Shown here in pieces: positions 27,249-27,379 of a stretch of DNA of 64,000 nt. This DNA is from Escherichia phage nataliec: sequence record MN850611.1; one strand, written 5' to 3'. The notes beneath the pieces are model-generated. The model was not told the DNA's origin. It saw only the letters and a list, made by a program, of their open reading frames with translations, and searched no databases. The stretch's first letter is position 1, and the number at the start of each line of letters is the position of its first letter. Both the position numbers and the translations under genes were made by a program.

Positions 27249-27379
27249 CAGAAGACCGTTTACAGCAAAACTTAAACAATCTATTTCTCGGTAAAGAAAA
27301 GGCGAAGGTTCGATTCCTTCACTCGGCAGATGTCGAGTTGGTGTAATGGTAGCACTTAAGATGATAAACAACGGTCTGG
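27249..27379 (+). ncRNA. candidate structured ncRNA with circularly permuted tRNA-like module (Y-RNA-like)
   Basis: Basal helix AGACCGTTT (5') with AAACGGTCT (3'). Inside: canonical T arm gaagg-TTCGATT-ccttc (27304-27320), then actcggc-agat-gtcgagt forming a closed 7-bp acceptor-like stem (one G-U), then U8-G9 and a D arm gtgt-aatGGta-gcac (27341-27355). No anticodon arm. Confidence 0.4.

Follow-up and report, generated by a model that had tools for sequence, protein, structure and literature searches.

A candidate Y-RNA-like element with a permuted tRNA-like core near a predicted Ro60-like gene of a Felix O1-type phage

Results

A permuted tRNA-like element in the tRNA array

The subject of this study is M-D, an RNA element predicted at positions 27247-27381 of a 64,000-nt stretch of DNA from Escherichia phage nataliec (record MN850611.1), the whole of which we call the window. 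An earlier reading made from the sequence alone (the sequence-only reading) had proposed that a circularly permuted tRNA-like module lies here inside a helix-closed element. Over this region the window shows 100% identity to Felix O1-type phages (Felixounavirus, for example Escherichia phage phiWec172). All coordinates are those of the window, and all features given with them lie on the plus strand. M-D is situated in a 430-nt gap between tRNA-Asp (27023-27100) and tRNA-Lys (27529-27604), within an array of at least 24 tRNA genes (24-26 called by ARAGORN and Rfam) whose spacers are mostly 1-10 nt. Immediately 5' of the array is an open reading frame (ORF) of 471 aa (24425-25840) with a predicted Ro60 fold; M-D starts 1.4 kb past the end of this gene (25840 to 27247) on the same strand.

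The unconstrained minimum free energy (MFE) fold of M-D gives the full architecture at -32.3 kcal/mol. Its ends are joined by an outer 3-bp helix, UAC/GUA (27247-49/27379-81), which the sequence-only reading did not list, followed by an AGA bulge (27250-52) opposite G27378 and then by the main closing helix of 8 bp, AGACCGTT/AACGGTCT (as RNA AGACCGUU/AACGGUCU; 27253-27260/27370-27377), which is found in the MFE folds and covaries as described below. A closing helix had been proposed and the 8-bp helix does exist, but the string given for it, 'AAACGGTCT', is not contiguous and the sequence reads AAACAACGGTCT. Inside the helix is the motif CAGCAA (27263-27268), another feature that had been passed over, which is invariant in all four modules of the array (see below) and present in most relatives. 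A short A/U stem, CUUA/UAAG (27271-74/27357-60), occupies the anticodon-stem position in the MFE fold; it is weakly supported, with 82% pairing and zero compensatory changes in orthologs.

The tRNA-like part begins with a variable-arm hairpin predicted by the MFE fold (TTTCT-CGGTAA-AGAAA, 27284-27299) and a T arm, GAAGG-UUCGAUU-CCUUC (27304-27320). Directly after the T arm comes an acceptor-like closed hairpin, ACUCGGC-AGAU-GUCGAGU (27321-27338), in which 7 of 7 positions pair with one G-U; it carries an A at the discriminator position and no CCA, and its loop is 4 nt. U8-G9 (27339-27340) leads into a D arm, GUGU-AAUGGUA-GCAC (27341-27355), with a U13-G22 pair. The nucleotides that form the tRNA elbow are complete, with U8, with A14, G18 G19 and A21 in the D arm, and with the G53-C61 pair and U54, U55, C56, R57 and A58 in the T arm; the 15-48 pair is non-canonical (A15/C48). 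Neither the sequence nor the MFE fold contains an anticodon arm or loop. The T arm, the closed hairpin, U8-G9, the D arm with its GG loop, the missing anticodon arm and the permuted order had all been described in the sequence-only reading, and each is present as described.

Other readings of the sequence itself were tried and rejected. M-D is not a terminator, as it has no U tract. It is not a canonical tRNA either, having no normal-order cloverleaf and no anticodon arm and receiving no call from ARAGORN or Rfam; a search with the Rfam tRNA model, one of the checks suggested beforehand, aligned the T arm alone (14.9 bits) and matched nothing in the rest of M-D.

M-D is specific and is maintained by covariation

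We scanned both strands of the window for a T arm followed by a perfectly paired hairpin and a D arm with GG. This pattern occurs at exactly one site, M-D, and a looser version of the scanner found 0 sites in 886 kb of reversed control sequence. With R1, a covariance model of the T-acceptor-D core, M-D scores 68.7 bits versus at most 26 bits for the junctions of neighbouring genuine tRNAs in the window.

M-D is conserved in ~245 Felix O1-like phage records, and orthologs are found in the genera Felixounavirus, Suspvirus and Mooglevirus and in the contig L208 (protein 53% identical). Over the three genera the acceptor-like helix shows compensatory changes (ACTCGGC/GTCGAGT, ACACGT/GCGTGT and ACCCTTC/GAAGGGT), and the length of its loop differs by 2, 4 and 8 nt, changes that would break any reading frame. 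The D and T loops remain unchanged over the same genera and the flanking sequence diverges. Judged from these sequence comparisons, M-D is conserved as RNA and not as protein. In the L208 ortholog the T stem (CAUGG/CCAUG), the acceptor (CGUGG/CCACG) and the closing helix (AGACTCTGT/ACAGAGTCT; AGACUCUGU/ACAGAGUCU) all differ. The closing helix also covaries between paralogs (AGACCAA/TTGGTCT versus AGACCGT/ACGGTCT), and in Mijalis a C-to-T change retains a U-G pair. A covariation analysis across homologous phages had been suggested as a way of checking the element, and it thus returned compensatory changes in both the acceptor-like stem and the closing helix.

Compensatory changes affect 3 of the 7 acceptor pairs within Ounavirinae and all 7 across 14 modules, and 4 of the 5 pairs of the T-arm stem across lineages. 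U8-G9 and the D arm are invariant in Ounavirinae, and other phages have GCUC...GAGC or GUCU...GGAC in the D arm with pairing kept. When the 14 cores, drawn from at least 9 lineages, are taken together, 13 of 16 pairs are changed on both sides, including all seven acceptor pairs. The variable arm is misaligned by MAFFT, so that pair counts there are poor; read by eye, Mooglevirus has a different hairpin at the same place (TTTC-AGGGTAT-GAGA).

Four modules share one scaffold

The pattern CAGAAGACC-N5-CAGCAA ... GGTCTGG (RNA GGUCUGG) has four occurrences in the array, which we name M-A to M-D and which lie 0.7-1.5 kb downstream of the Ro60-like gene on its strand. M-A (26538-26614) consists of the bulged closing stem, CAGCAA and an apical hairpin with no tRNA-like part, M-B (26705-26772) has the same scaffold, and M-C (27160-27237) has the scaffold with an A/U hairpin as cargo. 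The outer helix, bulge and main helix are common to all four modules, and the tRNA-like cargo is found only in M-D. To place them in a wider context we used R2, a covariance model trained solely on modules from unrelated phages. In the whole window the best R2 match is M-B (26.9 bits, E 4e-4), the second-best is M-A (22.4 bits) and, with filters off, the third-best is M-C (19.5 bits). R2 does not recover M-D because the model does not accommodate its 100-nt tRNA-like insert; what ties M-D to the family is its ends, which match those of M-B exactly over the 5' 22 nt (TACAGAAGACCGTTTACAGCAA) and the 3' 13 nt (ACGGTCTGGTAAT).

All four modules lie downstream of two sigma-70-like promoter matches (25859-25979, sites at 25859 and 25950), which are consensus matches only, each with 10 of 12 positions in a consensus scan. 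No terminator-like site was found on the plus strand from these matches to 27780. They stand upstream of the tRNA/Y-like array and would drive a first block containing all four modules.

Similar modules accompany related genes in unrelated phages

The wider family was sampled in 65 contigs from outside Ounavirinae (L141-L205), whose proteins are 39-47% identical to ORF 24425-25840. In the window, a generic scan for CAGCAA inside a 7-bp helix of any sequence gave too much background, in similar numbers on both strands, and was replaced by stricter or position-restricted tests and by the covariance model. Within 700 nt of the gene, 64 stem-plus-CAGCAA modules lie on the gene's strand, in 47 of the 65 contigs, versus 4 on the opposite strand; when a T arm is additionally required the counts are 22 versus 0. 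These foreign modules are mostly simple, of the form AGGnnnn-UUA-CAGCAA, an A-rich loop and nnnnCCU-G. R1 finds further tRNA-like modules that are not tRNAs, again on the gene's strand and often abutting the gene (three in L143, and others in L149, L155, L166, L144, L164, L193 and elsewhere). An upstream C[ACU]GCA[AC] together with an enclosing helix accompanies 16 of 19 such R1 matches versus 1 of 19 tRNA junctions, which makes CAGCAA a candidate protein-recognition element. The exact pattern CAGAAGACCN5CAGCAA recovered only Ounavirinae among viral contigs; ~100 single matches to it were judged to be chance, as their 3' partner is missing.

Five of ~15 related modules encode a discriminator and CCA right after the acceptor 3' strand, versus ~0.2 expected by chance, and these five have acceptor loops of 8-19 nt; a Mooglevirus-type module has G-CCA with a loop of 8 nt. 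L143 is a contig without tRNA genes, and at 5900-6940 it has three tRNA-like modules and one plain module, all at most 1.1 kb upstream of the Ro60-like gene; two of the tRNA-like modules encode CCA, one is without an acceptor hairpin, and the last module stops at the ribosome-binding site of that gene.

Three phage contigs of 220-233 kb contain chained tRNA-like units (L167 10770-10990, L173 10940-11210 and L186 10540-10810). The acceptor 5' strand TGGCGGT in these chains is complementary both to an upstream ATCGCKA (with G-U pairs) and to a downstream ACCGCCA, and the same DNA can therefore be parsed in two ways, into permuted or into normal-order tRNA-like units, with a stem/CCGCAA scaffold between them. 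From their sequence, the chains look like an intermediate of permutation by duplication.

Among the same 65 loci we counted 175 tRNA genes within 7 kb of the DUF2828-type gene, all on its strand; 17 loci have at least 3 and 36 have none. As more than half of the loci (36 of 65) are without tRNAs, the gene is linked more tightly to the stem/CAGCAA RNAs than to tRNA arrays.

The gene 5' of the array encodes a predicted Ro60-like protein

Pfam finds DUF2828 (6e-29) and DUF7788 (7e-43) in the product of ORF 24425-25840, which belongs to PHROG 850, 'RNA-binding protein'. Sequence-only searches (phmmer against the PDB, with no match; PADLOC; and Pfam TROVE, discussed below) gave nothing useful, and only structure comparison was informative. 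An AlphaFold2 (AF2) model was built from a 50-sequence alignment with a predicted local distance difference test score (pLDDT) of 89 and a predicted template modelling score (pTM) of 0.88. When this model was compared with the PDB by Foldseek, the top 11 matches were all Ro60/TROVE proteins aligned over their full length (E 1.5e-8 to 1.3e-6, 506-555 columns, template modelling scores 0.47-0.66). They include proteins of Thermus phage phiLo, Xenopus, human and Deinococcus, with phiLo phiRo60 among the two best, and the ranks that follow are isolated vWA domains only (E>2e-3). The MIDAS residues (those of the metal ion-dependent adhesion site), D279, S281, S283, T349 and D381, are invariant in 50 homologs, and a profile alignment of DVSGSM in the ORF to DVSASM of Ro60 is weak (E 0.6). 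By its modelled structure, a HEAT-repeat ring with a vWA domain, the ORF product is a member of a divergent Ro60-like clade. A literature search yielded nothing relevant on DUF2828 or on Felixounavirus transcriptomes.

The ORF is the ortholog of gp130 of phage Bas63 (bas63_0130; 95.9% nucleotide identity over the region by BLAST). Bas63 gp130 has been described as a Ro60-like protein encoded directly upstream of tRNAs that counters the Ppl defence, in a preprint on PhageMaP, in which barcodes are inserted via Cas9-mediated recombination (bioRxiv 10.1101/2024.10.10.617714). Gene 130 has PhageMaP fitness values of -2.87, -3.35 and -3.65 on the Ppl host and of +0.5 to +1.1 on other hosts. The authors of the preprint put forward only the guess 'some tRNA genes are possibly Y RNAs' and identified no RNA (bioRxiv 10.1101/2024.10.10.617714). 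The candidates described here differ from that suggestion in being unannotated spacers or the mis-annotated ORFs bas63_0137/0138; M-D of Bas63 is overlapped by bas63_0137, a mis-annotated ORF on the minus strand.

A DUF5681 gene (23972-24343) is always found 5' of the Ro60-like gene in Ounavirinae (the window and L206-L208). It corresponds to gene 129 in Bas63, which, unlike gene 130, is strongly required on all hosts examined (fitness ~-1.5 to -3.8).

Further features of the locus

Between tRNA-Asp and M-C, two conserved hairpins without a U tract are found at 27106-27158 (GAGGGC...GCCCCTC and CCTTAAAGA...TCTTTAAAGG). Directly 3' of M-D is a 144-nt RNA (27381-27524) closed by a near-perfect helix of ~25 bp (MFE -48.3 kcal/mol, z = -6.1). 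Its stem covaries between genera and its interior is largely swapped out, with a conserved mini-hairpin, CAGAC-CUUAAGCAA-GUCUG, that again contains AGCAA. The long duplex resembles an RNase III substrate. In Bas63 this RNA is annotated as ORF bas63_0138, and insertions there are neutral.

The Rfam tRNA model also reports two tRNAs that ARAGORN does not, at 26458-26529 (55.4 bits) and 28011-28089 (31.7 bits), the first of which is the tRNA-Glu annotated in relatives. An ORF for an HNH homing endonuclease (26100-26456) is located within the array, with tRNA-Pro on one side and the next tRNA on the other; it is missing from Bas63 and many relatives, which accounts for a 14% alignment gap. Finally, GU169904.1 ('Staphylococcus phage SA1') and MG065664.1 ('Campylobacter phage A132') contain DNA ~99% identical to the Felix O1-type region of the window and are probably chimeric or contaminated assemblies.

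Comparison with YrlA and other known systems

YrlA RNAs (Rfam RF02553) occur in Salmonella Typhimurium, other bacteria and mycobacteriophages (Chen et al. 2014, PMC4201824; Wang et al. 2018, bioRxiv 10.1101/312249). Their V region is followed by the T arm, a closed 'acceptor' stem-loop and the D arm, and the two ends form a stem; the motif GNCGAAN0-1G (CGAA) is conserved in the 5' strand of the Ro-binding stem. They are recognised by synteny, as RNAs encoded at most 4 kb from a same-strand Ro60 ortholog, are bound by Ro60 in vivo, are genuine substrates of tRNA enzymes and carry the modifications pseudouridine 55 and dihydrouridine (Chen et al. 2014, PMC4201824). M-D resembles YrlA in that its ends are predicted to pair and its distal tRNA mimic is ordered as V, T arm, closed acceptor-like stem-loop and D arm, complete with the elbow nucleotides. 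The sequence-only reading had likened the element to YrlA as a tRNA mimic rotated so that its ends lie at the anticodon-stem position, and this does match the published topology (Chen et al. 2014, PMC4201824). The end-closing stem of M-D is predicted, with ends placed from the sequence, and is supported by covariation between paralogs and orthologs. M-D furthermore has no free CCA, is accompanied by sisters that are not tRNA-like, as Salmonella YrlA is by YrlB, and lies within the synteny distance of a same-strand neighbour that is of Ro60 type by predicted structure, not by Pfam TROVE.

There are also differences. The partner gene is DUF2828/DUF7788 instead of Pfam TROVE, M-D stands among the tRNA genes of a phage array, its acceptor is 7 bp long, a hairpin takes the place of the V loop, and its family signature is an AGA/G-bulged stem with CAGCAA instead of CGAA. 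Three relatives, in L155, L143 and L149, match RF02553 with 41.4, 38.2 and 35.8 bits, below the 69-bit gathering threshold, over the whole model or its core; these are the sole significant non-tRNA matches to Rfam 15 among the modules. M. smegmatis YrlA is opened by RNase P (Chen et al. 2014, PMC4201824), and related phage modules are like it in having long loops and an encoded N-CCA. M-D differs in its 4-nt loop and lack of CCA, which makes cleavage doubtful; on this ground, and by analogy, M-D probably stays closed like Salmonella YrlA, and the long-loop N-CCA relatives are probably opened by RNase P like YrlA of M. smegmatis.

Pairs of Ro60 and Y RNA have been found in phages before, in mycobacteriophages (PMC4201824) and in Thermus phage phiLo, for which binding has been demonstrated (PMC12135203). 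The phiLo system, phiRo60 with Yrl1/Yrl2 (NAR 2025, PMC12135203; PDB 9KOP, 9L5Y), is similar to the present locus in that a phage protein with the Ro60 fold has more than one Y-like RNA gene adjacent to it. In contrast to M-D, the phiLo RNAs were chosen by a CGAA motif and a stem-bulge-stem shape, and the term 'tRNA-like' does not occur in the paper (PMC12135203). The phiLo protein is also a recognisable Ro60 homolog by sequence, whereas ORF 24425-25840 is one by fold, and binding and PNPase recruitment were demonstrated for phiLo (PMC12135203), whereas the pair in the window is predicted from sequence and model.

Circularly permuted tRNA genes and two-piece genes for transfer-messenger RNA (tmRNA) encode the T arm and acceptor 3' strand before the acceptor 5' strand and D arm. 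M-D has the same rotated order of parts. Those RNAs mature with an anticodon arm or a tag template, however, and M-D has neither.

Discussion

We have established the structure of M-D and its covariation, the predicted Ro60 fold of the neighbouring gene product and the recurrent linkage of such genes with stem/CAGCAA RNAs. From that linkage, and by analogy with Y RNAs, we think it somewhat probable that M-D is a Y-like RNA partner of the Ro60-like protein encoded by ORF 24425-25840; it is probably one of four such partners, M-A to M-D. Y RNAs, whose stability usually depends on Ro60, dock on it via a conserved bulged stem formed by their ends and present a second domain to other factors, and by this analogy the bulged stem and CAGCAA of the modules are a probable docking site. 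That the RNAs are expressed, processed and bound, and what the tRNA-like domain does, is all inferred on the same basis; the course would be as follows. M-A to M-D would be transcribed along with the tRNA array from promoters at ~25860-25980, and tRNA-processing nucleases would cut them free of the tRNA precursor. The Ro60-like ring would then bind them through the bulged stem and CAGCAA, and the tRNA-shaped domain of M-D may be shown to a tRNA-recognising partner or may gate access of the protein to other RNAs.

Several observations weigh against a Y-RNA role for M-D. Taken alone, the z-score of its fold is modest (z = -2.06), and the specificity of the element rests instead on the scanner and R1 tests. 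Among the 14 cores, 93% of cells are paired, versus 65% when shuffled and 43-48% with slid partners, but some covariation sets were chosen by tools that reward pairing and these percentages are partly circular; pair-type diversity is not. L206 (63% protein identity) has three modules, none of them tRNA-like, and Yersinia phage P778 retains only the T arm, which is consistent with the tRNA-like cargo being optional. ORF 24425-25840 has no Pfam TROVE match at E<=10, with DUF2828 and DUF7788 the only domains found, so that its mode of RNA binding may differ from that of Ro60. The Ro-binding motif GNCGAAN0-1G/CGAA is absent from M-D, which reads UACAGAAGACCGUUUACAGCAA, with CAGAAG the nearest sequence. 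An Rfam search with the Y RNA and YrlA models had been suggested with the sequence-only reading, and M-D has no match to either, at gathering threshold or even at E<=10; the link of M-D to YrlA within Rfam is therefore only through its relatives. Lastly, insertions in Bas63 gene 137, which lies over M-D, have PhageMaP fitness values of +0.63, +0.55 and +0.73 on the Ppl host and of +0.52, +0.53 and -0.29 on a lab host, from which it follows that the anti-Ppl function does not require M-D and that the phage can do without it in the laboratory.

These published insertion data indicate that the M-D RNA is accessory or redundant and not required for the anti-Ppl activity of the protein. The neutrality may reflect redundancy of the four RNAs with one another, a role in gating instead of enabling, or a part played on other hosts. 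M-D is of the YrlA type by topology and synteny and fails on the CGAA motif and the Rfam threshold; it is hence a variant of the Y-RNA kind and not a strict YrlA member. The term originally given to it, Y-RNA-like candidate, is the right level of claim, and membership of the YrlA family is not supported.

A complete set of elbow-forming nucleotides with a 7-bp acceptor would also suit a tRNA decoy or sponge that acts independently of the Ro60-like protein. Such an RNA would titrate or recruit RNase P, the CCA-adding enzyme, TruB/DusA or a defence nuclease that recognises the acceptor or elbow, and its closing stem would merely be stabilising. The position of M-D in a tRNA array, the fact that YrlA RNAs are substrates of tRNA enzymes and the failure of M-D insertions to reproduce the gp130 phenotype all agree with this. 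However, M-D has no anticodon loop and cannot decoy anticodon nucleases, and a decoy leaves unexplained both the three sister modules without a tRNA-like part and the occurrence of the scaffold, with or without tRNA cargo, by the Ro60-like gene in 47 of 65 unrelated contigs. We regard this explanation as unlikely.

It is likewise improbable that the four modules are cis-acting structures of a polycistronic tRNA precursor, be they processing, spacing or stability signals or autoregulatory operators of the Ro60-like protein, and not free-standing functional RNAs. The modules do fill spacers between tRNAs, M-D is directly followed by the 25-bp perfect helix resembling an RNase III site, and insertions in M-D are neutral; in L143, L149 and L166, moreover, modules run right up to the ribosome-binding site of the Ro-like gene, the arrangement expected of an autoregulatory leader. 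On the other hand, most of the array's spacers are 1-10 nt long and have no need of an element of this sort, the modules of the window are 0.7-1.5 kb past the gene and behind separate promoter-like sites, so that they cannot be its leader, and an elaborate covarying tRNA core is needless for a spacer.

M-D could also be an evolutionary leftover without present function: a tRNA gene would have been duplicated in tandem and its outer halves lost to decay, with the junction remaining. As an origin this is plausible: five related modules keep a discriminator and CCA after the acceptor 3' strand, L167, L173 and L186 have chains of tRNA-like units with interchangeable acceptor strands, L206 has no counterpart of M-D, and insertions are neutral. 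As an account of the present element it is very unlikely, since pairing in the acceptor, T and closing helices is maintained by compensatory changes, the sequences of the D and T loops are the same in three genera while their flanks diverge, and M-D is embedded in a scaffold common to modules that are not tRNA-like. The idea that M-D is a permuted tRNA gene or two-piece tmRNA yielding a translation adaptor, or a protein-coding region, can for practical purposes be dismissed as contradicted by its sequence, for although its 3' half precedes its 5' half as in tRNAs of Cyanidioschyzon merolae and alpha-proteobacterial ssrA, and hypothetical ORFs such as bas63_0137 are annotated over it in several records, it lacks both an anticodon loop and a tag reading frame, nothing is called there by Rfam or by ARAGORN, a program that detects permuted tmRNA, and the orthologs have indels of 2, 4 and 9 nt inside the supposed ORFs together with paired substitutions typical of RNA stems.

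Returning to M-D as a Y-like partner of the Ro60-like protein, we tentatively extend this to a broader proposal that strikes us as about as easily wrong as right. M-A to M-D and more than 60 relatives by DUF2828-type genes may form an unrecognised Y-RNA-like family, with a signature consisting of an AGR...YCU-G closing stem and UUNCAGCAA and with modular cargo, which would be an unstructured A-rich loop at its simplest, a lone T arm in intermediate cases and a whole permuted tRNA mimic at its most elaborate. Mimics of several lineages encode a discriminator and CCA, and in this proposal they would be opened by RNase P and have a 3' end of true tRNA type. As for the ribonucleoprotein, it would be either the active form or a regulator of a widespread phage anti-defence protein, as exemplified by the anti-Ppl activity of Bas63 gp130.

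Particles of Ro60 and Y RNA are conserved from bacteria to humans, and the partner and purpose of the tRNA-mimic domain of YrlA and of bacterial Y RNAs are still unknown in the literature. The pairing is known in bacteria and had so far gone undescribed in the Felix O1-type phage group, a classical group of Salmonella and E. coli phages, in which the Y-RNA design is now met beside a divergent Ro60-like gene with a published anti-Ppl phenotype. The gp130-type protein thereby gains concrete candidate RNA partners that had been unannotated or mis-annotated as small ORFs, and a simple sequence signature locates such RNAs by homologous genes in many phages. The natural series from tandem tRNAs to permuted mimics bears on the origin of tRNA mimics. 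In a tractable phage-host pair it becomes testable which ligands the Ro-like ring binds, whether the RNAs gate or target it, and what the tRNA shape recruits.

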